A stretch of 64,000 bases of DNA from an uncultured bacterium (GTDB taxonomy: Bacteria; Eisenbacteria; RBG-16-71-46; CAIMUX01; VGJL01). The stretch spans positions 2,187 through 66,186 of the forward strand of contig CAZNRY010000002.1 in assembly GCA_964575675.1 (NCBI GenBank), written 5' to 3'. Under the pieces are notes generated by a model. That model ran no database searches. It was not told the origin of the DNA and worked only from the letters and a program-made list of their open reading frames with translations. Position numbers and translations under genes: made by a program. Of this stretch, positions 1,544 to 27,209 are shown one piece after another (position 1 is the first letter of the stretch; every line of letters begins with the position of its first letter).

Positions 1544-1695
1544 TGTCGCGCCCCGCCGCGAGAAAGCGGTGCGAGCGTGGCGTTCGCCCCGTCGGGATCC
1601 GACCGCGCGTGCCGTGAGCTTCCCGCGGAGTGTTCAACGCCGCGGGGCTGCGTCCCTGCGCTATCCTGTATGGAAATCCACCGGCCGGGCCGCTC

Positions 1696-4014
1696 ATGGC
1701 GCCCGCCCTGAACCCGAGCGTTAGCTCCAGAAGGAGTTGCAAGTTGGTAATCGAATCGACCCCGGAATACGTTGCCGTGGTTTACGCGGCAATGGAGCGG
1801 AGGCTTCAGGTCGTGCGCAAGCGGCTCGGCCGGCCGCTCACCTTCGCCGAGAAGGTGCTGTTCGGACACCTCGATGACCCGCAGCGGCAGGATCTTCGTG
1901 CGGGCGAGAGCTATCTGATGCTGCGCCCGGATCGGGTCGCGATGCAGGATGCGACGGCGCAGATGGCGCTTCTTCAGTTCATGCAGGCCAACCGGCCGCG
2001 CGTCGCGGTGCCGACGACGGTCCACTGCGATCACCTGATCCAGGCCCGGCTCGGCTCCAAGTTGGACACGGCCTCCGCGCTGAAAGAGAACGAAGAGGTC
2101 TACGAGTTTCTGAAGTCCGTCTGCTCCAAGTACGGCATCGGGTTTTGGAAGGCGGGTGCGGGGATCATCCACCAGGTCGTGCTGGAGAACTACGCGTTCC
2201 CGGGAGGACTTCTGATCGGCACCGATTCCCACACGCCGAATGCCGGCGGGCTCGGGATGATCGCTTCGGGCGTGGGCGGCGCGGATGCCGTCGACGTCAT
2301 GGCTGGTTTCCCCTGGGAGGTGAAGTACCCGAAGCCGATCGGGATCCGTCTGACCGGGGAGCTGGGCGGGTGGACGGCGCCGAAGGACATTATCCTCAAG
2401 CTCTGCGGGATCCTGACCGTCAAGGGCGGCACCAACCGCATCCTGGAGTATTTCGGCCCCGGCGCCGCGGCGATCTCGTGCACCGGCAAGGCGACGATCA
2501 CGAACATGGGGGCCGAGCTCGGAGCCACCGGATCGATCTTCCCCTTCGACGAGACGATGGACCGCTTCCTGCGTGGAACGGAGCGGGCAGCGCTTGCGGC
2601 GCTCGCTGCGAGCCATCGCGGCCTCTTGTTGGCCGACCCGGAGGTGGAGGCCACTCCCGAGCGCTTCTTCGAAAAGGTGATCGAGATAGACCTTTCGACG
2701 CTCGAGCCGCAGATCGTCGGCCCCCACACCCCCGATCTGGCTCGGGGGATTTCGGAGCTCGCGGCCGAGGTGAAGGAGAAGGGCTACACGGAGAAGATAT
2801 CGGTCGCGCTCCTCGGCTCCTGCACGAACTCCTCCTACGAGGATATCGGGCGTGCGGCGGACATAGCTGGCCAGGCGAAGCGGGCGGGGTTGAAGATGGC
2901 GAGCCCGTTTCTCGTCACCCCAGGGAGCGAGCAGATCCGCGCGACGATCGAGCGGGACGGGCAGCTCGCGGCCCTGGAGGAGATCGGGGGGACCGTCTTG
3001 GCCAACGCCTGCGGCCCGTGCATCGGACAATGGCGTCGGGATGATCTTCGCAAGGGCGAGTCGAATACGATCGTCACCTCCTTCAACCGCAACTTCCCGC
3101 GGAGAAACGACGGCAATGCGGAGACCTTGGCCTTCATCGGAAGTCCCGAGATGGTGATCGCCCTGGGCTTGGCCGGCCGGTTGACGTTCAACCCGGTGAG
3201 CGACACCCTGACGGCCCCCGACGGGAGGCGAATCAAGCTCAACCCGCCGTCCAAGGCGCCCGATCTTCCGGCGGGCGGCTTCGTGCGCGATGAAGATGGA
3301 TACGTCCCGCCGGCAGCAGACGGGAGCGCCATCGCCATTTCGATCGCCCCCGGGAGCGAGAGGCTCCAACTCCTCGAGCCTTTTCCGGCTTGGGACGGGC
3401 GGGACGCGATCGAGCTTCCGATTCTGCTGAAGGCGAAGGGAAAGTGCACGACCGACCACATCTCACCGGCGGGTCCCTGGCTCCGCTTCCGCGGACACAT
3501 CGATCGGGTAAGCGACAACATGTTCATCGGTGCGACAAACGCTTACACGGGGGAGGTTGGGCACGGTCGCAATCTCATGACCGGGCGAACCGGCGAACCC
3601 TTCCCGGCAATCGCGCGCGACTACAAGGCGCGAGGCGTCGGCTGGGTCGCGGTTGGAGACGAGAACTACGGGGAAGGGAGCAGCCGCGAACACGCGGCCA
3701 TGTCTCCCCGTTTCCTTGGTGCGGCTGCCGTGATCGTTCGATCTTTCGCGCGCATCCACGAGTCCAATCTGAAAAAGCAGGGAGTGCTCCCGCTGACGTT
3801 CACCGATCCGGCAGACTACGAGAAGGTCCGCGAGGGTGACAGGCTGAGCCTGCTTGGTCTCGCTTCCCTTGCGCCCGGCGTTGACGTGAAGGGGCGTCTG
3901 CGCCACGAGGATGGGTCATCGGAAGATCTCCACCTGCGACACACGTTGAACGAGGAGCAGATCGGCTGGTTTCGGGCCGGGGGGGCCCTGAACGGCCTGA
4001 GAAAGTTGTCGTAG
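1696..4014 (+). CDS. acn: Aconitate hydratase, mitochondrial-type (AcnA/ACO2-like).
   Basis: Near-identical blocks to eukaryotic/mito-type aconitase: RPLTFAEKVLFGHLDDP, LRPDRVAMQDATAQMALLQF, VPTTVHCDHLIQA, and the Cys ligands SCTNSSYEDIG and NACGPCIGQW. The start is uncertain: the track ORF begins at 1630, and in-frame ATGs occur at 1696 and 1792. Confidence 0.85.
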   Translation: MAPALNPSVSSRRSCKLVIESTPEYVAVVYAAMERRLQVVRKRLGRPLTFAEKVLFGHLDDPQRQDLRAGESYLMLRPDRVAMQDATAQMALLQFMQANRPRVAVPTTVHCDHLIQARLGSKLDTASALKENEEVYEFLKSVCSKYGIGFWKAGAGIIHQVVLENYAFPGGLLIGTDSHTPNAGGLGMIASGVGGADAVDVMAGFPWEVKYPKPIGIRLTGELGGWTAPKDIILKLCGILTVKGGTNRILEYFGPGAAAISCTGKATITNMGAELGATGSIFPFDETMDRFLRGTERAALAALAASHRGLLLADPEVEATPERFFEKVIEIDLSTLEPQIVGPHTPDLARGISELAAEVKEKGYTEKISVALLGSCTNSSYEDIGRAADIAGQAKRAGLKMASPFLVTPGSEQIRATIERDGQLAALEEIGGTVLANACGPCIGQWRRDDLRKGESNTIVTSFNRNFPRRNDGNAETLAFIGSPEMVIALGLAGRLTFNPVSDTLTAPDGRRIKLNPPSKAPDLPAGGFVRDEDGYVPPAADGSAIAISIAPGSERLQLLEPFPAWDGRDAIELPILLKAKGKCTTDHISPAGPWLRFRGHIDRVSDNMFIGATNAYTGEVGHGRNLMTGRTGEPFPAIARDYKARGVGWVAVGDENYGEGSSREHAAMSPRFLGAAAVIVRSFARIHESNLKKQGVLPLTFTDPADYEKVREGDRLSLLGLASLAPGVDVKGRLRHEDGSSEDLHLRHTLNEEQIGWFRAGGALNGLRKLS

Positions 4015-4190
4015 CGCGGCCGCCGAGGCATGATCGGGGGTCGAAGGCCGGAGCGTTCCGCGTGCCGGCCGCCGGTCGCCCCGGACAATTGCATTTGCTT
4101 GCGGTAGAAGAAGTTCCCTCTTCCCACCGGGACCGAGACTTGATAGCATCCTCAACAACATGTGGTCCTGGGGCAAAATGGGGAGGAACG

Positions 4191-4940
4191 ATGAGATCGT
4201 ACGCTATAGCAAACATTAAGGGCGGTTCGGGCAAGACGACGGTCGCGGTCAATTTGGCTGCCGGGCTGGCCCTTTCGGGGCGCAGAGTCGTCCTCTTTGA
4301 TCTGGATCCTCAGGGTTCGAGCAGTTTCCATCTTCTGTCGCAGGCGACGAATGGCAACCTGGCTGATGCGCTGGCGAGCGAGAAGAAGCTCCAGGATGTT
4401 CTGCTCGGCACGAAGGTCGGCGGTCTCGCGATCGCGCCGGGGAGCCGGATGCTCGCCCCCTTCGACAACGGCGGCCATCCGACGAAGGACCGGCTCGGGC
4501 AGCTGCTCACACAGATTCCGGCGGATGTGGACTACGTCTTTTTCGATACGCCCCCGACTTGGGGTTCGTTGCTGATCGCGAGCCTTTCGAGCGTCGACGG
4601 CGTCCTGATCCCCGTTACGACCCGCGAGTTGGACGTGCAGATCCTCGGGCTCTTGATGGACGTGATCGAGCAGGTCCAGCGCCACCGCAATCCCCGCCTT
4701 GCGGTGTCGGGCATCATCCCGAACCGCATCGTCCGCACACGGTTGAGCGCGAGGATGGAGGAGACGCTTCGCCAAACGTACGGGGCGGCGATTCTGCCAA
4801 CGATCCGAGAGAACGCCCGACTTGCGGAAGCCGCCGGTTTCCACGCGCCGATCCAGATCACCGCGCCAACCAGCAGCGGCGCCGAGGATTTCGGCGAGTT
4901 GACGCGGGTGTTCCTCGAGCGGGAAGAGCGCTCGAACTGA
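4191..4940 (+). CDS. ParA/MinD-family P-loop ATPase; orphan, with no parB nearby.
   Basis: Deviant Walker A motif ANIKGGSGKTT, then DLDPQGS. GGAGG lies 6 nt upstream of the ATG at 4191. The N-terminal extension in the track (from 4062) has no RBS support. Confidence 0.8.
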   Translation: MRSYAIANIKGGSGKTTVAVNLAAGLALSGRRVVLFDLDPQGSSSFHLLSQATNGNLADALASEKKLQDVLLGTKVGGLAIAPGSRMLAPFDNGGHPTKDRLGQLLTQIPADVDYVFFDTPPTWGSLLIASLSSVDGVLIPVTTRELDVQILGLLMDVIEQVQRHRNPRLAVSGIIPNRIVRTRLSARMEETLRQTYGAAILPTIRENARLAEAAGFHAPIQITAPTSSGAEDFGELTRVFLEREERSN

Positions 4941-4968
4941 CCCCGATCCGCGCTGGATGGGTGCGAGA

Positions 4969-5000
4969 AACGGCGGGTTCGGTAGCGAACCCGCCGTTTT
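4969..5000 (+). terminator. Rho-independent terminator downstream of the parA-like gene.
   Basis: Perfect 13-bp stem AACGGCGGGTTCG / CGAACCCGCCGTT with loop GTAG, followed by TTTTG. Confidence 0.75.
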
Positions 5001-5043
5001 GCGATTGCATCCGGCCAGCCTCCGCGTTGAAAATAGAAGGTTA

Positions 5044-5059
5044 GACTGACCGGTCAGTC
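5044..5059. promoter_or_regulatory. Perfect 16-bp palindrome GACTGACCGGTCAGTC. It is a candidate operator immediately upstream of the heme operon.
   Basis: Seen directly in the sequence. It lies ~20-40 nt upstream of the first heme-operon start (5078/5099) and the RBS AAGGAGGG. Its size and symmetry are typical of a TetR-family operator. Confidence 0.45.
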
Positions 5060-5077
5060 AGATCGGTCAAGGAGGGA

Positions 5078-5956
5078 TTGAATGGGCCGGCCAGCTCCAT
5101 GAACTACCTTCTCCCCGTGCTCCGCTGCGCGGTGCCGAGCCTCTATTTTCTGACCCTTGTCCTTTACGGTCTGCGTTTCCTCGGAAGGGGGGAGCGGTGC
5201 GCGCGTCTAGCGCGGCCCGCTTTCTGCACGGTGCTTGGCCTTCACGCATTCTTCCTGGCGACGTTTGTCGCCGTGCATCGACGGATCCCGCTCGCAGCGG
5301 CGCCGGAGATCCTGACGGTCATCGCTTTCACGACGGCGCTGGCCTACTTCTACGTCGAGACCCGGACCGGCGATCTCTCGACGGGGTTCTTCCTGCTCGG
5401 ATTCTCCACGCTCCTCCAGTTCGCCGCTTCGGGGAGGATCGCCCTGGATCTCGAGGTTCCGCCCCTGCTGCGCGATCCAATGTTCGGCCTCCACACCGGC
5501 ATGGCGATTCTCGGCTACTCGGCCTTCGCGGTGTCGGCCATTTATGGATTCCTCTTCCTCCTGCTGTATCACGATTTGAAGTCGACCCGCTTCGGGTTGA
5601 TCTACCGGCGGCTTCCCCCGCTGGACATCCTGGGAGGGATGAACATCCGGGCGGCGGTTTTTGGGCTCGCGTCGCTCACCGTGGCGATCGGCTCCGGGGT
5701 CATATGGGCGGAGAAGCTCCATCCCGGTTTCGTTCGCGACCCGATGTTCCTCCTGACGCTTCTCGTCTGGTTGATTTACGCCGTCTGTGTTTTCGCATAC
5801 TACCGGCTCGGTTGGAGGGGAAAGCGGGCGATCTACCTCTCGATTTCCGGATTCGTATTGATGGGTCTGGCGCTGATCGGCGTGAGCGGGTTCCTCAACT
5901 CGTTCCACCATTTCGCGGACATCGTGGCGCCATGGAACTCGTCGTCGTCGGTCTGA
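5078..5956 (+). CDS. hemX: CcsA/ResC-like cytochrome c assembly (heme-handling) membrane protein, HemX-like.
   Basis: Polytopic membrane protein (8 predicted TM segments). Its position directly upstream of and overlapping hemA matches the hemAXCDBL arrangement. The start is uncertain (TTG 5078 or ATG 5099). Confidence 0.6.
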   Translation: MNGPASSMNYLLPVLRCAVPSLYFLTLVLYGLRFLGRGERCARLARPAFCTVLGLHAFFLATFVAVHRRIPLAAAPEILTVIAFTTALAYFYVETRTGDLSTGFFLLGFSTLLQFAASGRIALDLEVPPLLRDPMFGLHTGMAILGYSAFAVSAIYGFLFLLLYHDLKSTRFGLIYRRLPPLDILGGMNIRAAVFGLASLTVAIGSGVIWAEKLHPGFVRDPMFLLTLLVWLIYAVCVFAYYRLGWRGKRAIYLSISGFVLMGLALIGVSGFLNSFHHFADIVAPWNSSSSV

Positions 5957-7212
5957 GCCACAAGACGGCCCCGCTCGATCTGCGGGAGCGACTGGCCTTC
6001 ACGCCGGGCGAGGCCGAGGAGTCCCTCCGCGCGGCGGATGCGGTCGCGGAGATGTCGGAGCGCCTGCTTCTGTCGACCTGCAACCGCACCGAGTTGTACT
6101 CGCTGGCCGAGACGACGGAGAAAGGGAAGGAGACCTTCCTCAACCTCGTTCAAGTCCGCCGTGGCATCGAACCATCGGAGCTCGACGGCTTGGTCTACGT
6201 GATGAACGGGCGCGAGATGGTTGCCCACCTCTTCCGGGTCGCGGGTTCGGTGGATTCGATGGTCCTTGGGGAAGCACAGATCCTCGGCCAGGTGCACGAT
6301 GCCTTCGAGATCGCCCGCCGGGCGGGAACGACCGGCCCCCTCATGCACAAGCTTCTCGATGCAGCCTTCCGGGTTGGGAAGCGGGTTCGCACGGAAACCG
6401 AGATCGGGAGCGGTGCGGTCTCGGTCAGTTCGGCCGCGGTCAATCTGGCCGCGAAGATCTTCTCCGACATGCCGGAGCGGGTAGCCCTTCTCATCGGATC
6501 GGGAGAGACCGGAGAGCTTGCGGCCCGCCACCTGAAGGAGCAAGGCATCGGGCGGCTCCTCGTCGCAAACCGCACGCCCGAGCGTGCGGCCGTGCTGGCG
6601 AAGGAACTGGGCGGCGAGGCCGTTTCGTTCGAAGATCTGGAGAGTGCGCTCGGGCGAGCGAGCATTCTGGTCTCGGCGACCTCATCGCCGGTTCCCCTCG
6701 TTCGGTACGAGATGGTCCGGCGCGTCGTCTCGGGGCGCGGGAATCGCCCCCTGCTGATCCTGGACATCGCGGTGCCGCGCGACGTGGAGCCCTCAATCGG
6801 CGACCTTCAGAATGTCTTCCTCTATGACATCGATGCGCTCCAGGGATTGGTCAACCAGAACCTCGAGCGCAGAAAGCGCGAAATCCCCAAGGTCGAAGGG
6901 ATCATCCAGCACGAGTTGGAGCAGTTTCTGAGATGGTACGGATCCCTCGATGCGACGCCGGTCATCCGAGAGCTTCGCGACCGGTTCGAGACAATTCGCG
7001 CGGAGGAGGTCGATCGGCACGCCGGGAAGTTCTGTGAGAAAGACCGCGAGCAGATCGAGGCGCTCACGCGGTCGATCGTCAACAAACTGCTCCACGAGCC
7101 CAGCGTGGCGATCCGCCACCTGCACAAGCACGGGGGAGGGGGGGCGACCCGGCTCGAAATCGTACGCAAGCTCTTCGGCCTGGGGGGGGACGAACCGGAT
7201 GGCAGCGCTTAA
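5932..7212 (+). CDS. hemA: Glutamyl-tRNA reductase.
   Basis: MELVVVGLSHKTAPLDLRERLAF..., LLSTCNRTELY, and the NAD-binding GSGETGELAARHL. The track ORF 5197..7212 is an upstream artefact extension. Confidence 0.9.
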   Translation: MELVVVGLSHKTAPLDLRERLAFTPGEAEESLRAADAVAEMSERLLLSTCNRTELYSLAETTEKGKETFLNLVQVRRGIEPSELDGLVYVMNGREMVAHLFRVAGSVDSMVLGEAQILGQVHDAFEIARRAGTTGPLMHKLLDAAFRVGKRVRTETEIGSGAVSVSSAAVNLAAKIFSDMPERVALLIGSGETGELAARHLKEQGIGRLLVANRTPERAAVLAKELGGEAVSFEDLESALGRASILVSATSSPVPLVRYEMVRRVVSGRGNRPLLILDIAVPRDVEPSIGDLQNVFLYDIDALQGLVNQNLERRKREIPKVEGIIQHELEQFLRWYGSLDATPVIRELRDRFETIRAEEVDRHAGKFCEKDREQIEALTRSIVNKLLHEPSVAIRHLHKHGGGGATRLEIVRKLFGLGGDEPDGSA

Positions 7213-8155
7213 GCTCGGCACGCGGGGAAGCGACCTCGCGCGTTGGCAGACGGATCACGTCGCGGGGCTCCTGCGGAGAGCACGCCCAGGCATCGAGTTG
7301 GAAATCGTCGTCATCACGACCACCGGGGATCGCGTCCTCGATTCGCCCCTCGCCAAGATCGGCGGGAAGGGGCTCTTCACGAAGGAGATCGAGGAGGCTC
7401 TTCTCGATCGGAGAATCGACCTCGCCGTCCACAGTCTGAAGGACCTTCCGACGCTTTTGCAGGACGGGTTGATCTTGGGTGCTGTCCTGTCGCGGACCGA
7501 CCCGCGGGATGTCTGGATCTCCCGTTCGGGGAAGAAGCTCCTCGAGATGCCGCCCGCCGCGAGGATCGGCACCTCCAGTCTTCGCCGCAAGGCGCAGCTC
7601 TTGAGCGCGCGGGCAGACCTCAGAATCGAATCCCTCCGCGGGAATGTGCCGACGCGGCTGAAGAAGGCGCTTGCGGGCGAGCTCGACGCGATCGTCCTCG
7701 CTCGGGCGGGGGTGGAGCGGCTCGGGTTCCTTTCGCACGTGACCGAGGTCCTCTCGAGCGATCTGATGCTCCCGGCGCCCGGACAGGGTGCGCTGGGGAT
7801 CGAGACTCGCGAGGGGGACGACGGGACCCGCTCGCTTCTCGCCGCCCTGGATGATCCCTCGGCAAGGTCGTCTACGACCGCCGAGCGCTCGTTTCTCCAG
7901 GCCCTGGGGGGAGGGTGCCAGGTTCCGATCGGGGCACTCGCGCGGCCGCCGCATGAGGGATCGATGTCTCTTCTGCTCGAGGGGATGGTCGCCGATCCGG
8001 GCGGGATGCGCGTGCTCCGCGGTTCGCAGACTGGACCAGCCGATCGCGCGTACGACCTCGGTGAGCTCCTTGCCCGACAGCTCATCGAACAGGGCGCGGG
8101 GGAGATCCTCGCCGCGCTGGGCGAGGGCGGCGCGGCGCCGCAAGCGACCTCGTGA
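7199..8155 (+). CDS. hemC: Hydroxymethylbilane synthase (porphobilinogen deaminase).
   Basis: MAALKLGTRGSDLARWQTDHV..., GGKGLFTKEIEEALL, DLAVHSLKDLPT. Overlaps the hemA stop. Confidence 0.9.
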   Translation: MAALKLGTRGSDLARWQTDHVAGLLRRARPGIELEIVVITTTGDRVLDSPLAKIGGKGLFTKEIEEALLDRRIDLAVHSLKDLPTLLQDGLILGAVLSRTDPRDVWISRSGKKLLEMPPAARIGTSSLRRKAQLLSARADLRIESLRGNVPTRLKKALAGELDAIVLARAGVERLGFLSHVTEVLSSDLMLPAPGQGALGIETREGDDGTRSLLAALDDPSARSSTTAERSFLQALGGGCQVPIGALARPPHEGSMSLLLEGMVADPGGMRVLRGSQTGPADRAYDLGELLARQLIEQGAGEILAALGEGGAAPQATS

Positions 8156-9690
8156 TGAAACGGGACGGAGCAGGCGCGGATCGCCCGGAAGGCGGGTCGG
8201 GGCGCGTCGAGCCGGGGCGTCCGCGGGGCCGGCGATCACCTTCCCCTGCGGCAAACGAACCTCACGGCCGGATCCACTGCCTCAAGGAAGAACAGATTCT
8301 GGAGGCTGCGGCCGGGCTCTTCGGGGGTCGCGACCTCTCCCTCGTCACGATGGAGGAGGTCGCCGCGTTGGCGGGGGTGGCGAAGGGAACTCTGTACAAC
8401 TACTTCCCGTCGAAGGAGGCTCTTTACGCCTCGATCCTGACGGCGCGGATGAACGACCTTCTCGAAAACTTGGGGACAGCGTTACGGCTGGAGGAGGAAA
8501 CAAGGGTCCGCCTGAGGAAGTTCGTCGCGGAGGATCTCACCTTCCTCCTCGATCACCCCGACTTCCTTCGAATGCTTCGCAAGGAGGAAACCCGGCTTCC
8601 CCGCGAGCGAACGGCCGAGGTCCGCGAATTGCGCGAGAGGCTCCGCAACCTCCTTCGCGAAGCCTTGGGACGAGGGATGGAGGAGGGGAGCATCCGCCGG
8701 GTGTCGACGGGCTGGGCGACGGACCTGATTTTGGGGACGGTGGAGGGAGCGGCGCTCCGCTGCATCGAGGAGGGGTGCACGGCGGGACGCCGCGCGGAGG
8801 AGTCCGAGGCCCTGTTCGATTTCCTCTGGCGAAGCATCTCGGTGGCGAACGGCTCGCGGGAGCCTGAGCACGACTTGGTGGGGACGACCGTCTTGATCAC
8901 GCGCGAAGAGGAAGAGGGTGGGGAGTTGTCCTCGGCCATCGAGAGGCTCGGCGGTACGCCCATTCGTCTCCCACTGGTCAGGACGGCCCCGCCGAGCGAT
9001 CCCGAGCGCTTGCGCAGGGCCGCGGCCGAGTTGTCGCGCTACGACTGGATTCTCTTCACGAGCGCCAGGGGCGTGGATGCGCTCTCCGCGGCGTGGCGCG
9101 AGGCCGGATCGCCGCCGATCCGGCCGGGAAGCTCATTCGGCGCGGTCGGCGAGTCAACGGCGCGCGCGGTGCGGGAGCGATTCGGCCGCGTCGATCTTGT
9201 GGCGCCCGAGAGGTCGGGCGAGGGGCTCGCCGCTGCACTTCGGGCGCGGGGGGTCGACGGCGCCCGATGCTTGCTGCCCCGCGCCGAGCAGGGAAGCCCC
9301 GACCTGCCCCGCCTGCTCAGGGCGTCGGGTGCGTTCGTAGACGATGTGGCCGGCTATCGGACGGAAGCGGTGGAATCGAATCTCGACCCCGCCCTCGACC
9401 GGTTGAGAGACTCGCCGCGGGCTGTCGTGGTCTTTGCGAGCCCCTCGGCGGTTTGTGCCTTCGCGGATTTGGCCGGGTTCGATTCGGTAGATCGGATGCG
9501 TTCCCGGGTGCGGTTCGCGACGATCGGAGTTGCGACGAGCGCCGCCCTGCGGAGCTTCGGCTTCGAGCCCGATGCGGAGGCGCAGCAGGCGAGCTTCACC
9601 GCCCTGGCCGCGGCAGCGGCGAGGGCGGCGTCCATGGAATCGGTGGCGAAGGCGGAGCCAGGACGCACTCAGGAAGGAGGGAGCAGCTGA
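8155..9690 (+). CDS. hemD: Fusion protein: N-terminal TetR-family transcriptional regulator (HTH plus ligand-binding domain) fused in-frame to uroporphyrinogen-III synthase (HemD).
   Basis: Residues ~45-90 carry the TetR HTH: [44 protein letters not shown]. Residues ~240-512 are HemD-like ([58 protein letters not shown]). The frame is continuous with no stop across the junction (checked codon by codon at 8821-8940). The ATG start overlaps the hemC stop. Confidence 0.7.
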
Positions 9691-10664
9691 TGGATTACAT
9701 CCCGGTCTCGCGTCCGCGGAGGCTTCGGCGGACCGAGGCGCTGCGGAGGATGGTGAGGGAGACGCACTTGGGCGTGGAGAATCTCATCCTCCCCCTCTTC
9801 GTCTGTCACGGGAAAGGGGTTCGCGAACCGATCGGTTCGATGCCGGGGGTGGAGCGGCTGTCGATCGATCATCTGGTTGGCGAATGCCTGGAGGCGCGGG
9901 ACCTTGGCGTTCTTGGCGTGATCCTTTTCGGGATTCCGAAATCGAAGGACCCCGAGGGACGGGAGGCATACGCGGAGGACGGAATCGTCGCGACGGCGAT
10001 TCGCGCGATCAGGAACGCCTGCCCCGAGCTGTCGGTGTGGGCGGATGTCTGTCTCTGCGAGTACACCGATCACGGCCACTGCGGCCTCATCAAGGGGGGA
10101 CAGGTCGACAACGACGCGACGCTGCCTCTGCTGGCCGAAGCGGCTACGGTCTACGCCCGCGCGGGCGCCGACGTTGTGGCCCCTTCCGACATGATGGACG
10201 GCCGCGTCCGGGCGATTCGAGCATCGCTCGATGGCGCGGGGCTCCTCGACACGGTGATCTGCTCTTACGCGGCCAAGTACGCTTCCGCCTACTACGGTCC
10301 CTTCCGCGAGGCTGCCGGCTCGACCCCGCGCTTCGGCGACCGGCAGGGGTACCAGATGGACCCAGCCAACGCGCGAGAGGCGCTTCGCGAGGTCTTGTTG
10401 GACGTCGAGGAGGGGGCGGACATCGTCATGGTGAAGCCTGCGCTGGCCTATCTGGACGTGATCCTCCGCGTCAGGAGCGAGGTCGATCTTCCGGTTGCCG
10501 CCTACAACGTCTCGGGCGAGTACGCGATGATCTGCGCGGCCGCCGCGAACGGCTGGGTCGACCGGAGGCGAATCGTGCTGGAGACGCTCACCTCGATGCG
10601 GCGAGCCGGGGCGGACTTGATCCTCACGTACTTCGCGAAGGAGGTCGCCGCGTGGCTCCGTTAG
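9690..10664 (+). CDS. hemB: Porphobilinogen synthase (delta-aminolevulinate dehydratase).
   Basis: [24 protein letters not shown]..., [20 protein letters not shown]. Start ATGA overlaps the hemD stop. Confidence 0.9.
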
Positions 10665-11980
10665 GGCGGGAGGGCGAGATTCGCGGCGGCGAGCGGAGCG
10701 CCGGGCTCTTTGCCCGCGCCGTGCGGGTGATCCCCGGCGGCGTGAATTCGCCCGTCCGTGCGTTCGCCGCGGTCGGAGGGGGACCGGTGTTTCTGCGCCG
10801 GGGTGAGGGAGCGCGCGTTTGGGATGAGGATGGCAAGGAGTACATCGACCTGGTCAGTTCCTGGGGGCCTCTGATCCTCGGGCATGCGCACCCGGTAATT
10901 CGCGAGGCGATCGCCCGCGCGGCTGCGAACGGGACGAGCTTCGGCGCCCCCACGGAGGGCGAGGTCGAGTTCGCCGAGGCGATCGTCGATGCGGTCCCGT
11001 CGATCGAATCGGTTCGCCTGGTGAGCTCGGGGACCGAGGCGACGATGTCGGCGGTGCGTTTGGCGCGGGGGGCAACGGGGCGCGATGTGCTGATCAAGTT
11101 CGACGGGTGCTACCACGGGCACGCCGATTCCTTCCTGATCCAGGCTGGGTCGGGAGCCGCGACGTTCGGCCATCCGAGCAGCCCGGGTGTCACGGCGGGG
11201 ACGGCCCGGGACACGCTGAACGTCCCCTACAACGACCTCGACGCGGTTCGGGCGGCGGGCGGGGCGAACCACGGGGGCTTGGCCGAGATCATCGTCGAGC
11301 CCGTGGCCGCCAACATCGGATGTGTTCTGCCCGAGCCCGGCTTCCTCGCCGGATTGCGGGAGATCTGCGACCGCGAGGGAGCGATTCTGATCTTCGATGA
11401 GGTGATCACCGGTTTCCGGCTTGGGTACGGCGGCGCGCAGGAGCGGTTCGGGGTCCGGGCCGATCTCACGACCTTGGGGAAGGTGATGGGCGGGGGACTT
11501 CCGGTCGCCGCCTACGGCGGGAGGCGGGACTTGATGGAACATCTCGCCCCGTCGGGACCCGTCTACCAAGCGGGAACTCTGTCGGGCAATCCGCTCGCCG
11601 TTGCCGCTGGTCGCGCCATGCTGGGGCTCTTGAAGGAAGGGACGGCCTACCGGTCTCTGGAAGCGCTCGGCCAAAGGCTCCGGGGGGGGATCGAGGAGAA
11701 CATCCGGTCGCTCGGGGTGCCGGTCAGCTACACCGCGATCGCCTCGATCGGCTGTGTCTACTTCCGCCGGGGGCCCGTCCGGAACTGGGGTGATGCGAAA
11801 CAGGCCGACACGGACCGCTTCCGACGCTACTTCCGGGAGATGCTGAGACTTGGCGTCTATCTTGCGCCGTCACAGTTCGAGGCGGCGTTCCTTTGCGGGG
11901 CGCACACAGAGGAGGACATCGACTGGATCGTCGCGGCCAACCGCCGCGCGCTTGCGGCGGCCTTCGAGGAGACGGCGTGA
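10652..11980 (+). CDS. hemL: Glutamate-1-semialdehyde 2,1-aminomutase.
   Basis: [57 protein letters not shown]. No in-frame ATG exists; GTG at 10652 has AAGGAGG 8 nt upstream. Confidence 0.85.
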
Positions 11981-13017
11981 ACGATCTCTTTCTGCGGGCC
12001 TGCAGGGGAGAGCCGGTCGAGCGGACCCCCGTCTGGATCATGCGCCAGGCGGGCCGCTATCTGCCCGAGTACTTGCGGGTGCGAGAGAAGTATTCCTTTT
12101 GGGAAATCTGCACGATCCCAGAGGTGACCTGCGAGGTGACGCTTCAGCCCGTCCGGCGCCTCGGCGTCGACGCGGCGATTCTATTCTCGGACATCCTGGT
12201 TCCTCTCGCGGCGATGGGTCTCGACGTCGACTTCCATCCGGCGCCGGAGATCGGAAATCCGATCCGCCGGCCCGCCGAGATCGACCGCCTCCATCTCCCG
12301 GAGCCCGACGGGCTCTTGGCCCGCGTTGCGGACGGGGTCCGGCTTATCAGGCACGAGCTCGACTCCTCGGTGCCCCTGATCGGATTCGGCGGGGCGCCGT
12401 TCACCCTCGCGACCTACGCCGTGTGCGGCGGCGCGTCGAAGAACCACGCCGAGATCCGAAGCATGCTCTTCGGCGATCGCGAGTCCGCGCACCGCCTGCT
12501 GCGCAAGATAGCCGACGGCCTCGTCGTGTCCTTGACCTCGCAGTGTGATGCGGGCGCGCAGGCGATCCAGCTCTTTGATTCGTGGGCGGGTCTTCTGGGC
12601 CCTGAGGACTACGCCGAGTTCGCGCTGCCGTACGCCCGCGACGTGCTAGCGCGGGTCGCGGGCCCGGGTGTGCCAAGGATCTATTTCGCTCCGGGCGCCT
12701 CGCCGCTGCTCGGGTCGTTTGCCGACGTCGGGGCGGAGGTGATCGGCGTAGACTGGCGGATCTCCCTCTCGGACGCGCTCAGGATTCTCGGGGATCGTTT
12801 CGCGGTCCAAGGGAACATGGATCCGGGCGTACTGCTCGGGAGTCCCGCCGCGATCGAGGAGCGGGTCATTCGCATCCTCGGCGAGGCGGATGGAGCGAAG
12901 GGACATGTGATGAACCTCGGGCACGGGATTCTCCCGGAGACTCCGGTGGAAAATGCGGTTGCTTTTGTCGATGCGGTGCGCCGCCACTCGCAAAGAGAAA
13001 TCGGGAGTGGCAAATGA
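11977..13017 (+). CDS. hemE: Uroporphyrinogen decarboxylase.
   Basis: PVWIMRQAGRYLPEY. The GTG start overlaps the hemL stop (GTGA). The track ORF begins earlier (11893) with an R/G-rich extension judged spurious. Confidence 0.85.
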   Translation: MNDLFLRACRGEPVERTPVWIMRQAGRYLPEYLRVREKYSFWEICTIPEVTCEVTLQPVRRLGVDAAILFSDILVPLAAMGLDVDFHPAPEIGNPIRRPAEIDRLHLPEPDGLLARVADGVRLIRHELDSSVPLIGFGGAPFTLATYAVCGGASKNHAEIRSMLFGDRESAHRLLRKIADGLVVSLTSQCDAGAQAIQLFDSWAGLLGPEDYAEFALPYARDVLARVAGPGVPRIYFAPGASPLLGSFADVGAEVIGVDWRISLSDALRILGDRFAVQGNMDPGVLLGSPAAIEERVIRILGEADGAKGHVMNLGHGILPETPVENAVAFVDAVRRHSQREIGSGK

Positions 13018-14411
13018 TAGATGGGAAGCCTGCTGCGAAGATCACTGCGGAGATGCTCCAGCGGTATGACCGGCCGGGACCCCGCTACACGTCCTATCCG
13101 ACGGCGGTCGAGTTCAATGAAGGGTTCGACTCCGCCGCCTATGAGGAAAAGCTCTCGGAGGCGAATGAAGGGAGAGGCGATCCTCTGTCCCTCTATTTCC
13201 ACCTGCCGTTTTGTCACGAGAGGTGCACGTTCTGCGGCTGCAGCGTCGTGATCACGAAGAAGCCGGAAGTCTCCGCCCGATACCTCGACTACGTTCAACG
13301 GGAGATTCAGATGGTGGCGGCCCGCCTCCCCGACCGGCGGCGGGTGAACCAGCTCCATTGGGGCGGAGGCACGCCCACCTACCATCGCCCGGAAGAGATG
13401 GAATCGCTCTGGGAAGCGATCACCCGCCACTTCGAGATCCTCCCCGGCGCAGAGGTCGCGATCGAAGTCGATCCGCGCGTGACGACGCCGGCCCAGGTTG
13501 ATCTCCTCCGGAAAGTCGGATTCAACAGGCTCAGCATGGGTGTGCAGGACTTCACCCCCGAGGTCCAGGTCGCGATCGGCCGCAACCAAGGACACGACGA
13601 GACGGTGGAGCTGTACGGCTATTGCCGCAGGGCCGGCTTCGACTCGATCAACGTGGATCTGGTCTATGGACTCCCGCTCCAGTCGGTCGAGACGTTCCGC
13701 CACAACCTCGCGCAGGTCATCGCCCTGCGGCCCGACCGGGTGGCCGTCTACAGCTTCGCCTACGTACCGTGGATCCGAGCGAATCAGAAGAAGACGGACC
13801 CCAGGACCTTGCCGACGCCCGAGGTCAAGTTCGAGCTGTTTCTCAATGCGCTCGAGGCCTTCACCGCGGCCGGTTACCAACAGATCGGCATGGACCATTT
13901 CGCGCTGCCGGATGATGAGCTCGCGGTGGCGCAGCGGGAAGGGCGGCTGCAGAGGAACTTCATGGGCTACACCGTCAGGCCTGCGACCGACCAGATCGGG
14001 TTCGGGATCACGTCGATCGGGGACCTGCGGGCGGCCTTCGCACAGAACGTCAAGAAGCTTTCGACCTACTACGCGGCAATCGATTCCGGGCGGCTTCCGA
14101 TCGAGAAGGGATACATGCTCGACGAGGACGATCGGATCAGACGGCACGTCATCACCCAGCTGATGTGCAACTTCGGCCTGTCGATCGCGGACGTGAATGG
14201 ACGTTTCGGGATCCGTTTTTGCGAGTACTTCGCCGCCGAACTCCTCGAGCTCGCCGAGCCCCGCGACCACGGTTTCGTGCAGTTCGACGAGAGCGAGATC
14301 CGCGTGACGGCAACCGGTCGCCTCTTCGTGCGAAACGTCTGCATGGTCTTCGATCGCTACCTCAAGCGGAAGATGAACGACGACCGGCCTGTCTTCTCGC
14401 GGACGGTCTAG
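13014..14411 (+). CDS. hemN: Oxygen-independent coproporphyrinogen-III oxidase (radical SAM).
   Basis: Radical-SAM CxxxCxxC motif in LPFCHERCTFCGC. 465 aa, matching full HemN length rather than the shorter HemW. ATGA overlap with hemE. Confidence 0.85.
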   Translation: MIDGKPAAKITAEMLQRYDRPGPRYTSYPTAVEFNEGFDSAAYEEKLSEANEGRGDPLSLYFHLPFCHERCTFCGCSVVITKKPEVSARYLDYVQREIQMVAARLPDRRRVNQLHWGGGTPTYHRPEEMESLWEAITRHFEILPGAEVAIEVDPRVTTPAQVDLLRKVGFNRLSMGVQDFTPEVQVAIGRNQGHDETVELYGYCRRAGFDSINVDLVYGLPLQSVETFRHNLAQVIALRPDRVAVYSFAYVPWIRANQKKTDPRTLPTPEVKFELFLNALEAFTAAGYQQIGMDHFALPDDELAVAQREGRLQRNFMGYTVRPATDQIGFGITSIGDLRAAFAQNVKKLSTYYAAIDSGRLPIEKGYMLDEDDRIRRHVITQLMCNFGLSIADVNGRFGIRFCEYFAAELLELAEPRDHGFVQFDESEIRVTATGRLFVRNVCMVFDRYLKRKMNDDRPVFSRTV

Positions 14412-14451
14412 GATCGGTGGCGCGCGACCTCCAGGCGCCGGGGGGAGATGG

Positions 14452-15420
14452 ATGCCATCGATCGTCCTGCTGAACCTCGGGGGACCGGCAACCCTGGCCG
14501 ATGTCCGCCCGTTCTTGAGAAAACTGTTCTCGGACCCATTCATCATCGAGCTTCCCGGCGGGAGGCTGCTCCGGCCCATCCTGGCCTGGGCCATTTCGAC
14601 CTTTCGGACCAGAAAGGTCAGGGGGTACTACCGGCTGATCGGGGGTGGGTCGCCACTCCGGCGGCTGACGGCCGCCCAGGCGCGCGGCCTGGGCGAGGAG
14701 CTGAGCCGCCGCGGACATCCGGGAGTGCGCGTCGAGGTTGCGATGCGCTATGCGGACCCCGGCGCCGAGGAGGCTGTCCGGAGGCTGCACGCGGCCGGAG
14801 AGAGTACGATCATCGCTCTCCCGCTCTATCCGCATGAGTGCGTTGCGACGACGACATCGAGCCTGGCCGATCTGGAACGGGCGCGCGACCTGCTCGCGCC
14901 GGAGGTCGAGATTCGGGCCGTGCGCTCCTACCATCTTCATCCGGGCTACCTGGCCGCGATGGCCGCGCGGATCCGGGAAGCGATCGATCGGCTGCCGGTC
15001 GATCTGCGACGCGGCGCAGTCCTCCTCTTCAGTGCGCACGGGGTCCCGGAGAGACTCCCGATGCGCGGCGATCCGTACGTGGCGCAGATCAAGGAGACGG
15101 TGGATGCACTGCGCGCGCTCGTTGGCAGCGAGTACGAACACCGGCTGGGCTTTCAGAGCCGAACGGGGCCGGTTCGGTGGGTCGGTCCCGGCACCGACAC
15201 CGTGATCGAGGAACTGCGGGGGCGTCCCGCGGTCGTCGTCGTTCCGGTCTCCTTCGTGTCGGATCACATCGAAACGCTCCATGAGATCGACCTTCTTTTT
15301 GGGGAGAGGGCTCGGAGGGCCGGGATAGGGCTTTTCGTGCGTTGCGAATCTCTGAACGATTCGCCGCTCTTTGTGGGCGCCCTCGCCGACCTGGCGGAAC
15401 CGTTCCTGGGGGGGGCGTAG
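14452..15420 (+). CDS. hemH: Ferrochelatase.
   Basis: MPSIVLLNLGGPATLADVRPFLRKLFSDPFIIELP, FSAHGVP, VVPVSFVSDHIETLHEID. Confidence 0.9.
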   Translation: MPSIVLLNLGGPATLADVRPFLRKLFSDPFIIELPGGRLLRPILAWAISTFRTRKVRGYYRLIGGGSPLRRLTAAQARGLGEELSRRGHPGVRVEVAMRYADPGAEEAVRRLHAAGESTIIALPLYPHECVATTTSSLADLERARDLLAPEVEIRAVRSYHLHPGYLAAMAARIREAIDRLPVDLRRGAVLLFSAHGVPERLPMRGDPYVAQIKETVDALRALVGSEYEHRLGFQSRTGPVRWVGPGTDTVIEELRGRPAVVVVPVSFVSDHIETLHEIDLLFGERARRAGIGLFVRCESLNDSPLFVGALADLAEPFLGGA

Positions 15421-15422
15421 CG

Positions 15423-16811
15423 GTGGCGGAAGTCGTCGTGATCGGCGGCGGGATCGCCGGCCTTGCCTGCGCCGATGAAATCCTCCGGCGCGACCCGGAA
15501 GGATCGCTCCTACTCGTGGAGGCGCAGGAACGGCTCGGAGGGAACATCCGAACCTCGCGCGAAGAGGGATTCACCCTCGAGTGGGGCGTGAACGGCTTTC
15601 TGGACAGCGTTGCCGAAACCCTCGAGCTCGTGGAGCGGATCGGACTGGCGGAGGATCTCCTCCCGGCGGGGGACTCCGCCGGGAAGCGCTTCATCTACCG
15701 GGGGGGGAGGCTGCGAGAAATCCCTCTTCACCCCCTTCGCTTCTTCGGCTCCGATCTCTTGAGCCTCGGCGGCCGGCTTCGAATCCTCGGCGAGCCTTTC
15801 GCCTCGGCCCGCAGCGGGGAGGACGAGAGCGTGTTTTCTTTCGCGGCGAGGAGGATCGGGCGCGAGGCTGCGGAGATACTTGTAGATTCGATGGTTTCCG
15901 GTGTCTACGCGGGAAACGCGCGGCAGCTGTCGCTCATGGCGACCTTCCCCAAGATGGCCGAGATGGAGAGAGAGCACGGGAGCCTCGTGCGGGCGCTCTT
16001 CGCGCGGAGGCGCGAGGCGCGCCGGAAGGACCGGAGGGGGGGAGGGCCCGCGGGACCGGCAGGGACGCTGACCTCCTTTCGCCGGGGGATGCAGGTTCTG
16101 ACGGAGACGCTGGGCAAGAGGATTGGGCCGTCGCGGATTCGCCTGGGCGCGCCGGTTAGCGAGGTAGCCCGGCGTGGATCGGGGTATCGGATCGCCTTCG
16201 ATGGGCCGGACGGGGCCGTCGAGGCCGAGCGCCTGGTCGTTGCGGTTCCTGCCCGAGCCGCAGCGCAGTTCCTTCAAGGGATGGATCCGGGGCTCTGCGA
16301 GCCGCTCAGGGAGATCGGGTACGCCGGCCTCGCCGTCGTGGCCCTCGGCTACAAGTCGAATGAGTTGCCGCTCGAACCTCGCGGGTTCGGGTTCCTGACG
16401 CCGAGGGGTCAGGGGCTGCGCATTCTCGGCTGTCTGTGGGACTCGAGCGTCTTTGGAGATCGGGCGCCGGCGGGACGGACCTTGCTCCGTGCGATGATCG
16501 GGGGCGCCCATGACCCGGATGCGGCAGGGCTGGACGACGGCGCCCTTATCGAGATCGTCCTCCGCGACATCCGCGCGAGCATGAAGATCGAGGCCAGTCC
16601 TCGCCTCGTCCGGGTTTTCCGCCATCCCCTCGGTATTCCTCAATACACGATCGGGCACCCGGCGCGCCTGCGGGCGATCGACGCTGCGGTTGAGCGGCAT
16701 CCTGGCCTGGCCCTGGTCGGAAACTCCTATCGGGGGATCGCGGTGAATAGCTGCGTCAAAGAGGCAGCCGAGCTGGGAGCGCGTTGGAACCCTCCGGCGT
16801 CGCAGTCCTAG
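15423..16811 (+). CDS. hemY: Protoporphyrinogen (or coproporphyrinogen) oxidase, FAD-dependent HemY/PgoX family.
   Basis: FAD dinucleotide fold VVVIGGGIAGLACA, EAQERLGGNIRT. GTG start immediately after the hemH stop. Confidence 0.8.
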   Translation: MAEVVVIGGGIAGLACADEILRRDPEGSLLLVEAQERLGGNIRTSREEGFTLEWGVNGFLDSVAETLELVERIGLAEDLLPAGDSAGKRFIYRGGRLREIPLHPLRFFGSDLLSLGGRLRILGEPFASARSGEDESVFSFAARRIGREAAEILVDSMVSGVYAGNARQLSLMATFPKMAEMEREHGSLVRALFARRREARRKDRRGGGPAGPAGTLTSFRRGMQVLTETLGKRIGPSRIRLGAPVSEVARRGSGYRIAFDGPDGAVEAERLVVAVPARAAAQFLQGMDPGLCEPLREIGYAGLAVVALGYKSNELPLEPRGFGFLTPRGQGLRILGCLWDSSVFGDRAPAGRTLLRAMIGGAHDPDAAGLDDGALIEIVLRDIRASMKIEASPRLVRVFRHPLGIPQYTIGHPARLRAIDAAVERHPGLALVGNSYRGIAVNSCVKEAAELGARWNPPASQS

Positions 16812-26933: not shown

Positions 26934-27209
26934 CTAACGCTTCAAGAGGATCCACGCGCCCGCGGCGAGGAACAGCAGACCCGAGACCCAGCGGATCATC
27001 GCCGGGGGGATCGTCCGGGCCAGGAAGGCTCCGGCCCCGACTGCGATCGCGGAGGCGCAGGTGAGGGCGAGGGCGGCGGCGGCGAAGATCACCCAGGGCG
27101 CATGATGCGCCTGTTCCTTGCCGGCCAGAGCCAAGGCCGCGAGCTGGGTCTTGTCGCCGAGCTCGGCGACGAATATCAGGGCGAACGTCGAGAAGAACAA
27201 GCGCAGCAT
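26934..27209 (-). CDS. UPF0016/GDT1-TMEM165-like single-repeat membrane protein (putative Ca2+/Mn2+ cation transporter half-unit).
   Basis: ~91-95 aa with three TM segments and the family signature E-x-G-D-(K/R)-T (AELGDKTQLA). The track ORF (201 aa) has a spurious N-terminal extension. GGAGG lies 5 nt upstream of the ATG at 27209; an alternative ATG is at 27221. Confidence 0.65.
   Translation of the reverse strand: MLRLFFSTFALIFVAELGDKTQLAALALAGKEQAHHAPWVIFAAAALALTCASAIAVGAGAFLARTIPPAMIRWVSGLLFLAAGAWILLKR

Follow-up and report, generated by a model that had tools for sequence, protein, structure and literature searches.

The heme operon and its fusion gene

The window analysed here, a stretch of 64,000 nt (64 kb) from an uncultured bacterium of the Eisenbacteria, carries a cluster of heme-biosynthesis genes at 5099-16811 in which the hemD slot is occupied by an in-frame fusion of a TetR-type regulator with a uroporphyrinogen-III synthase (HemD). 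We describe this fusion, its relatives and a conserved palindrome at the head of the operon, and propose that the protein is probably both an enzyme of the heme pathway and a repressor of its genes. The genes of the cluster are as follows.

5099-5956, + strand: ccsA-like first gene, CcsA/HemX-like membrane protein (Pfam Cytochrom_C_asm, E 1e-22)
5935-7212, + strand: hemA, glutamyl-tRNA reductase (Pfam GlutR_N, Shikimate_DH and GlutR_dimer)
7205-8155, + strand: hemC, hydroxymethylbilane synthase (Pfam Porphobil_deam, E 1e-80)
8155-9690, + strand: tetR::hemD fusion gene (511 aa from ATG 8155; 512 aa from GTG 8152)
9690-10664, + strand: hemB, 5-aminolevulinate (ALA) dehydratase (Pfam ALAD)
~10694-11980, + strand: hemL, glutamate-1-semialdehyde (GSA) aminotransferase (Pfam Aminotran_3)
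~11974-13017, + strand: hemE, uroporphyrinogen decarboxylase (Pfam URO-D)
13014-14411, + strand: hemN, oxygen-independent coproporphyrinogen oxidase (Pfam Radical_SAM and HemN_C)
14452-15420, + strand: hemH, ferrochelatase (Pfam Ferrochelatase)
~15342-16811, + strand: hemY/PPO-type oxidase (Pfam Amino_oxidase)

Neighbouring genes overlap or are separated by gaps of at most about 40 nt, and the ten genes look like one operon. A single transcription unit starting near 5040 is suggested because the parA-like gene upstream ends in a strong terminator-like hairpin, described below. The start of the first gene at ATG 5099 was fixed by homology (MNYLLPVLRCAV); compared with NCBIfam, its product was CcsB-like, under the curated cut-off. 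TGATG is present at both ends of the fusion gene: the hemC stop (8153-8155) overlaps the fusion ATG and the fusion stop overlaps the hemB ATG. The fusion gene thus appears translationally embedded in the operon.

Ten loci were retrieved by protein (the window, L081, L082, L083, L085, L087, L088, L089, L091 and L092), to which a gene list for the homologue P0034 was added. The fusion sits between hemC and hemB in all ten loci, and the gene order, as far as the contigs reach, is ccsA-like-hemA-hemC-fusion-hemB-hemL-hemE-hemN-hemH-hemY.

A protein of two families

The fusion protein was divided into the following parts.

8260-8838, + strand: TetR module, residues 36-228, nine helices (Pfam TetR_N and TetR_C_24, AlphaFold2, Foldseek)
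8296-8433, + strand: helix-turn-helix (HTH) of the TetR module, residues 48-93, including the recognition helix (15 residues)
8839-8883, + strand: inter-domain linker, residues 229-243, predicted disordered, its length differing among homologues
8884-9648, + strand: HemD (uroporphyrinogen-III synthase) module, residues 244-498 (Pfam HEM4, Foldseek, conserved residues)

The original prediction had placed a TetR module N-terminal to a complete uroporphyrinogen-III synthase with no stop between them, and this was borne out. The open reading frame (ORF) listing gives a single frame at 8152-9690 (+ strand, 512 aa) in which the modules are joined without stop or frame change, and the database copy of the protein (P0001, 511 aa) is 100% identical, with ATG 8155 as start. 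Pfam located TetR_N (E 9.5e-15; 54.6 bits, cut-off 24) at residues 49-94, TetR_C_24 at residues 119-199 (E 3e-11) and HEM4 at residues 258-486 (E 2e-50), the last covering 229 of the 231 model positions (2-230). NCBIfam concurred with Pfam for both halves.

We then turn to the fold. An AlphaFold2 model, made with 17 homologues as input, reached a mean predicted local distance difference test score (pLDDT) of 83.7 and a predicted template modelling score (pTM) of 0.52. Residues 36-228 were modelled as a canonical nine-helix TetR fold (pLDDT about 85-94) and residues 244-498 as a two-lobed alpha/beta HemD module, with a low-confidence linker between them (~229-243; pLDDT below 50 at residues 232-236). 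At a pTM of 0.52, the mutual orientation of the two modules is undefined. The top Foldseek matches in the PDB were solved uroporphyrinogen-III synthases (1jr2, 3re1 and 4es6), with template modelling (TM) scores up to 0.78 (0.77-0.78 for 3re1 and 4es6), followed by FadR-type TetR repressors (3whc, 3whb and 5gp9; TM about 0.74-0.78), among which 3whc, the FadR of Bacillus subtilis, scored 0.78. Not one solved chain in this PDB search combined the TetR and HemD folds. In a PDB sequence search, the TetR module was nearest to Mce3R, PfmR, FrrA, SlmA and FadR-like proteins. The N-terminal module therefore scored as TetR, as anticipated, by its TetR_N match as well as by its predicted nine helices and their similarity to FadR. 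By every sequence criterion and every modelled-fold criterion tested, the protein belongs to both the TetR family and the HemD family.

Distribution of the fusion

We aligned and scanned 34 diverse fusion homologues (21-61% identical) from independent NCBI, JGI, ENA and Logan assemblies, and both TetR_N and HEM4 were present in 34/34. Besides the protein of the window itself, a search of 5.8 billion protein clusters returned twelve TetR_N+HEM4 proteins (37-61% identical), to which a profile search added five fusion proteins. When 1.84 billion representatives (at 50% identity) were scanned, about 25 clusters matched the profile end to end. According to the source labels, the high-GC members come from Candidatus Eisenbacteria (Ca. 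Eiseniibacteriota) and the low-GC members from Ignavibacteria/Ignavibacteriaceae. A profile of the low-GC members matched 720 clusters at E <= 1e-40, and both domains were found in the best 120 of these 720, among them an Ignavibacterium sp. metagenome-assembled genome (MAG) with a 2.8-Mb contig.

On the evidence of these searches, the TetR-HemD fusion is a common HemD form in Ignavibacteria MAGs and a recurrent one in Eisenbacteria. The architecture had been called non-standard, and it is indeed non-canonical, but it is not rare, as the Ignavibacteria clusters illustrate. The accompanying statement that HemD elsewhere stands alone or is joined to CobA or HemC agrees with our searches. Annotation pipelines already use the label 'uroporphyrinogen-III synthase/AcrR family transcriptional regulator'. 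Literature searches that combined TetR with HemD, the motif, trigger enzymes with heme, or heme in Eisenbacteria and Ignavibacterium returned no paper on this protein or its operator, and the fusion, though widespread, is apparently undescribed.

The fusion could in principle be an artefact of assembly or sequencing that merged adjacent tetR and hemD genes, and one homologue, P0011, is clearly frameshifted or mis-assembled. This explanation has a negligible probability: no refuting stop or frameshift lies between the modules, the continuous two-domain ORF recurs in all 34 homologues from independent assemblies and in at least 120 further Ignavibacteria clusters, and a split tetR + hemD arrangement was seen in no examined locus.

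Some related proteins were set apart. P0011 itself (685 aa), from a 225-kb contig, reads through hemC, tetR and hemD as the result of a frameshift and illustrates how assembly errors can distort this locus in public data. P0062 (607 aa) carries two response-regulator receiver domains where the fusions have the HTH and the first half of the TetR module; the end of TetR_C_24 and a complete HEM4 come after them. Either the protein is a chimera produced by assembly, or it represents a version of this architecture that is controlled by phosphorylation. HemDs with N-terminal extensions of 110-160 aa were considered as other regulator fusions and rejected, as they are fragments of ordinary HemC-HemD or CobA-HemD proteins. 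The closest stand-alone HemD, P0040, lies outside a heme operon and without a TetR neighbour, and gave no hint on the origin of the fusion.

A conserved palindrome at the operon head

A perfect 16-bp palindrome had been reported just upstream of the first operon gene; we found it exactly at 5044-5059, with matching halves GACTGACC and GGTCAGTC.

5042-5061, no strand: predicted operator, 16-bp palindrome GACTGACCGGTCAGTC at 5044-5059 inside the 20-nt site TAGACTGACCGGTCAGTCAG

The family consensus of the site is TGAACTGACCGGTCAGTTCA, and the halves of the 20-nt palindrome are TGAACTGACC and GGTCAGTTCA. No second copy of the 16-bp palindrome occurs in the 64 kb, even with 3 mismatches. Perfect 16-bp palindromes as such are not unusual here: the window has four (starting at 5044, 9824, 27154 and 61159) against a mean of 3.15 in dinucleotide-Markov resamples, a number that fits chance for a GC-rich window. 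The significance of the palindrome at 5044 thus comes solely from its position and its conservation across genomes. The other three are CGAACCGATCGGTTCG (9824-9839, within hemB), TCGCCGAGCTCGGCGA (27154-27169) and CGCGGCGATCGCCGCG (61159-61174).

The core CTGAC-N2-GTCAG was found in 9 of the 10 protein-retrieved fusion loci, exactly once per locus of 10-21 kb, always intergenic and just 5' of the ccsA-like gene. In 220 kb of fusion loci, CTGACNNGTCAG (CTGAC-N2-GTCAG) had 11 matches, all in the same place, for 0.1-0.2 expected; the 11 include L101 and L127, hem-operon heads that were found through the motif itself. Information content was near maximal from -10 to +10 around the palindrome centre and fell to background level beyond. 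Positions that had played no part in site finding were conserved as well, with T at -10 and T at +7 in 11/11 and A at -7 in 10/11. A second half-site-like sequence, GATCGGTCA at 5061-5069, was dropped since it is unconserved in the other loci.

The palindrome might have nothing to do with the fusion protein, being the site of another factor or an RNA hairpin or terminator, and some facts point that way: chance alone is expected to yield a perfect 16-bp palindrome in this window, and the arms could form a small hairpin. As RNA, however, the arms would fold only weakly (-9.1 kcal/mol, z = -1.9) and lack a U-tract, and a structure of the terminator type lies instead further upstream.

4964-5002, + strand: terminator-like hairpin and U-run (inverted repeat; RNA fold -30.6 kcal/mol, z = -6.1)

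This hairpin is likely the terminator of the parA-like gene (4062-4940) and the 5' limit of the heme transcription unit. The arms of the palindrome are conserved as sequence, without compensatory change, and an Rfam search returned sub-threshold noise alone, with no leader RNA family. Arm conservation, the weak hairpin and the lack of an Rfam match together argue for a protein-binding site at the DNA level rather than an RNA element.

Placement of candidate promoters was examined by a relaxed consensus scan (-35 TTGNNN, spacer of 17-18 nt, -10 TAnnnT-like), which gave the following candidate in the window.

5005-5034, + strand: sigma-70-like promoter candidate, -35 TTGCAT (5005-5010), 18-nt spacer, -10 GAAAAT (5029-5034)

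Its -10 hexamer ends 17 nt before the palindrome centre, and this distance was 16-17 nt in the window, L081, L083, L085, L087, L088, L092 and L101. In L082, TATCCT is found by eye at the same 16-17 nt offset, and in L089 and L127 a -10-like element adjoins the palindrome. If the start site is taken ~7 nt after the -10 element, the predicted operator would cover roughly +1 to +20. The region over the transcription start is a typical position for a repressor.

Stand-alone TetR proteins with the same palindrome

We next consider TetR proteins outside the heme context. A profile scan of genome contigs returned at least 80 loci of the nearest stand-alone relatives (27-38% identical; no fusion locus among the matches listed), from Myxococcota/'delta proteobacteria', Nitrospirota, Acidobacteriota, Binataceae, Firmicutes and Lentzea, among others. 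The motif CTGACNNGTCAG was present in 43 of the 80 listed loci, where about one occurrence is expected by chance in 1.29 Mb, and (within L002-L076) nearly always lay 5-120 nt upstream of the TetR gene. The Lentzea copy is found ~2.6 kb upstream of TetR, at the head of an operon that ends with TetR. The relatives head efflux operons of the type TetR-HlyD-ABC-ABC2 or TetR-OEP-HlyD-MFS. In the recognition helix, GVAKGTLY(L/N)YF-x-SK(E/D), they hardly differ from the Eisenbacteria and Ignavibacteria fusions.

The reverse search, with the exact 20-mer against metagenome contigs, gave 114 contigs (L093-L206), three of which are hem-operon heads. In many of them, as also in Lentzea, the motif heads an operon of an unknown 261-aa protein, a 678-aa ABC-2/DUF3533 permease and TetR. 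A module-like TetR was found within 4 kb in 34 of the 114 contigs, and in 34/34 of these the motif lay upstream in the direction of TetR transcription. Where contigs extended at least 3.5 kb on both sides of the motif, a module-like TetR was present in 10/13. A literature search returned no paper with the ACTGAC-N2-GTCAGT motif.

We read ACTGAC-N2-GTCAGT, a very well conserved palindrome, as the operator type of a cross-phylum TetR subfamily that would include the fusion module. The stand-alone members share with the fusion a near-identical helix, the same palindrome and a site at the head of the regulator's own operon, whereas they are about 180-230 aa long, lack an enzyme domain and lie with HlyD/ABC/ABC-2 or OEP/HlyD/MFS efflux genes instead of heme genes. 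The palindrome is taken as the cognate operator of the fusion because stand-alone TetRs with near-identical recognition helices carry it. The same finding, repeated over several phyla, leaves very little room for a palindrome unrelated to the fusion protein, which we regard as most improbable. A predicted operator for the module was thus obtained, at the operon head in 9/10 loci and shared with the closest stand-alone TetRs, and it is likely that the TetR module binds the palindrome and represses the heme operon.

Status of the HemD module

All positions conserved to at least 85% in 79 stand-alone HemDs are equally kept in the 34 fusions (T249, R250, G266, W298, T302, S303, G332, T335, G392, Y401, S429, S431, G458 and T461). 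The universally conserved HemD tyrosine is retained as Tyr401, and residues of the HemD loops (G332, T335, Y401, S429, S431, G458 and T461) are invariant across the 34 members. No other HEM4 gene was found in the ten fusion loci and no second hemD in the 64-kb window. The fusion takes the place of hemD in a heme operon that is complete in all other respects, is the sole HEM4 protein there and keeps the conserved residues; its HemD part is therefore likely to be an active enzyme.

A HemD domain may also serve regulation alone. NnaR of Streptomyces and Mycobacterium (Rv0260c type) is a regulator of nitrate/nitrite assimilation that combines an N-terminal HemD domain with a DNA-binding domain; the HemD domain reportedly shows no HemD activity, and a HemD paralogue is encoded separately (PMC6277429). 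By this precedent, the HemD part of the fusion would be a catalytically dead sensor of the DNA-binding module and the real synthase would be encoded elsewhere, and our HEM4 search was confined to the ten loci and the window. We hold this to be improbable. The two proteins have in common a HEM4 domain covalently linked to a DNA-binding domain, but both domain order and type of DNA-binding domain differ: NnaR has an OmpR-type C-terminal output domain and acts on nitrogen genes, whereas the fusion has an N-terminal TetR and the heme operon as predicted target. Accordingly, Pfam gave no Trans_reg_C match on the fusion, whose domain order is not that of NnaR. In addition, the fusion takes the hemD place in all ten loci with no other HEM4 nearby, the residues conserved throughout the HemD family are all kept, and its closest relatives by sequence are ordinary stand-alone, CobA-fused or HemC-fused HemDs. 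An active synthase is therefore the reading that we retain.

Ligand domain, linker and possible signal

Across the 34 members, invariant residues are confined to the HTH (A52, V64, G78, T79, Y81, S86 and K87) and the HemD loops listed above, and no invariant residue, His, Cys or other, was found in the TetR C-domain. Pfam TetR_C models match 19/34 members only. The linker is disordered and variable, with insertions of up to about 30 aa in P0006 and P0010. The C-domain without an invariant residue and the variable, disordered linker weigh against a tight allosteric coupling of the two modules, and fit a tethered arrangement better than a rigid one.

The same observations would suit a pure negative autoregulation without small-molecule signal, in which the C-domain is a dimerisation scaffold and repressor dosage is simply tied to enzyme dosage. 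Against this, the nine-helix fold of the ligand domain is fully kept, with high model confidence; pocket-region arginines (R139, R142, R160 and R164) are conserved within the high-GC Eisenbacteria group; and ligand control is found in almost every characterised TetR protein. We consider a signal-free circuit unlikely; as in other TetR proteins, the repressor is probably released or stabilised by a small molecule, for which heme or an intermediate of tetrapyrrole synthesis is the obvious candidate. The pocket arginines would be compatible with a ligand bearing several carboxylate groups, for instance heme or a porphyrinogen, which is only a hint, and we propose tentatively, at somewhat below even odds, that the signal sensed is a tetrapyrrole. 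It is more doubtful that the catalytic occupancy of HemD itself sets DNA binding, as true trigger-enzyme behaviour would imply. Similarly speculative is a flux sensor, in which hydroxymethylbilane (HMB)/uroporphyrinogen III or heme, bound in the HemD site or in the TetR pocket, would switch operator binding.

HrtR of Lactococcus lactis is a heme-sensing TetR repressor of the hrtRBA efflux operon, in which two His ligate heme. Like the fusion, it is a heme-linked TetR with a short palindrome of TGAC...GTCA core and is encoded in its own operon; unlike the fusion, it is stand-alone and controls efflux rather than synthesis. The 60 best PDB sequence matches of the TetR module did not include HrtR. 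An HrtR-like mechanism of heme ligation is not claimed, given the C-domain of the fusion without an invariant His or Cys.

Surroundings of the operon

Between the predicted operator and the first gene, a ribosome-binding site and a short upstream ORF (uORF) were noted.

5069-5102, + strand: Shine-Dalgarno (SD) AAGGAGG at 5069-5075 and 6-codon uORF at 5082-5102 (MGRPAP*), whose TGA overlaps ATG 5099

A layout with a uORF of 6-7 codons is also found in L083 (6850-6873), L085 (6935-6955) and L087 (3807-3827), with unrelated peptides. The uORF stop overlaps the start of the first gene as ATGA or GTGA; four other loci have a direct SD-start arrangement instead. The uORF is probably a translational-coupling device for the ccsA-like first gene. 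The genes that directly precede the heme operon, for aconitase and the parA-like ATPase (window 1630-4940), are syntenic in the Eisenbacteria-type loci L081, L085, L087 and L088.

A proposed enzyme-repressor of the heme pathway

The best overall explanation of these data is that the fusion is a bifunctional enzyme-repressor of its own pathway operon, to which we assign a probability of roughly 0.7. The C-terminal module would be the cell's uroporphyrinogen-III synthase. The N-terminal TetR modules would dimerise and bind TGAACTGACCGGTCAGTTCA (here GACTGACCGGTCAGTC, 5044-5059), and the occupied site, at about +1 to +20, would block transcription of the ten-gene heme operon. The repressor is encoded in the operon that it would control, is fused to HemD and is translated from the same mRNA; the operon would therefore be under negative autoregulation in proportion to the amount of HemD, hence to that of all co-translated heme enzymes. 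The earlier suggestion that the operon autoregulates through the HemD-borne TetR domain thus gained comparative support, from the conserved palindrome and from the link to stand-alone TetRs.

Several points weigh on the other side. DNA binding, repression, catalysis and ligand are all inferred. A stricter promoter and terminator scan of the window found none. As the HEM4 check was confined to loci and window, a second stand-alone hemD may lie elsewhere in these genomes. The palindrome survey covered fusion loci from outside Ignavibacteria, the home of most family members. Finally, L091 is the sole fusion locus without the palindrome. Its protein, P0037 (32% identical), is the most divergent among the fusion loci and carries K77R in the recognition helix; its upstream region (Eisenbacteria WJKF01000161.1, 938-1260) has a good promoter-like pair, TTGACA-18-TAGACT, and no degenerate operator or inverted repeat was found there. 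Regulation at L091 may have been lost or retargeted.

Trigger enzymes with a DNA-binding domain of their own are known (concept: Commichau and Stulke), namely the biotin ligase/repressor BirA, PutA and NadR. As proposed for the fusion, they combine an enzyme of a pathway and a repressor of the genes of that pathway in one polypeptide. BirA uses a winged helix, PutA a ribbon-helix-helix and NadR an HTH, whereas the fusion has a TetR fold; in the three enzymes the substrate or product switches DNA binding, whereas the TetR module of the fusion brings a potential ligand pocket of its own. The architecture of a trigger enzyme, that is an enzyme and a DNA-binding domain with a predicted site at the genes of its own pathway, is present in the fusion. 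Rather than a new kind of system, the fusion is a variant of two known ones, the TetR repressors and the trigger enzymes.

Two other heme systems offer a comparison. The hemAXCDBL operon of B. subtilis has the same clustering of hemA-hemC-hemD-hemB-hemL with a CcsA-family HemX as the window, but a plain HemD and PerR acting in trans; the window operon adds hemE, hemN, hemH and hemY as well as the regulator-bearing HemD. In Bradyrhizobium, a regulator of the heme pathway, Irr, is in physical contact with an enzyme of that pathway, ferrochelatase. There the contact is non-covalent, the regulator belongs to the Fur family and the step is the last of the pathway, unlike in the fusion.

Transcriptional control of heme synthesis is, to our knowledge, understood for only a few model lineages (Irr, HrrSA, PerR and Fnr/Anr types), and we know of nothing on such control in Ignavibacteria or Eisenbacteria. 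In the operon described above, a single operator and a repressor that forms part of a pathway enzyme appear to control all ten genes of the pathway. If confirmed, the fusion would provide a tetrapyrrole example for the small class of enzyme-repressors and, with one protein and a 20-bp site, a portable part for heme and porphyrin engineering. The ACTGAC-N2-GTCAGT subfamily of TetR proteins, for its part, allows regulon prediction for many uncharacterised efflux operons. The fusion also offers a direct handle on the signal that bacteria use to gauge tetrapyrrole flux. Should it be a flux sensor, it would measure flux at the HMB/uroporphyrinogen step and adjust transcription of all ten heme genes to it; it would then be the first transcription factor known to sense this step, and the default heme control in Ignavibacteria and Eisenbacteria.

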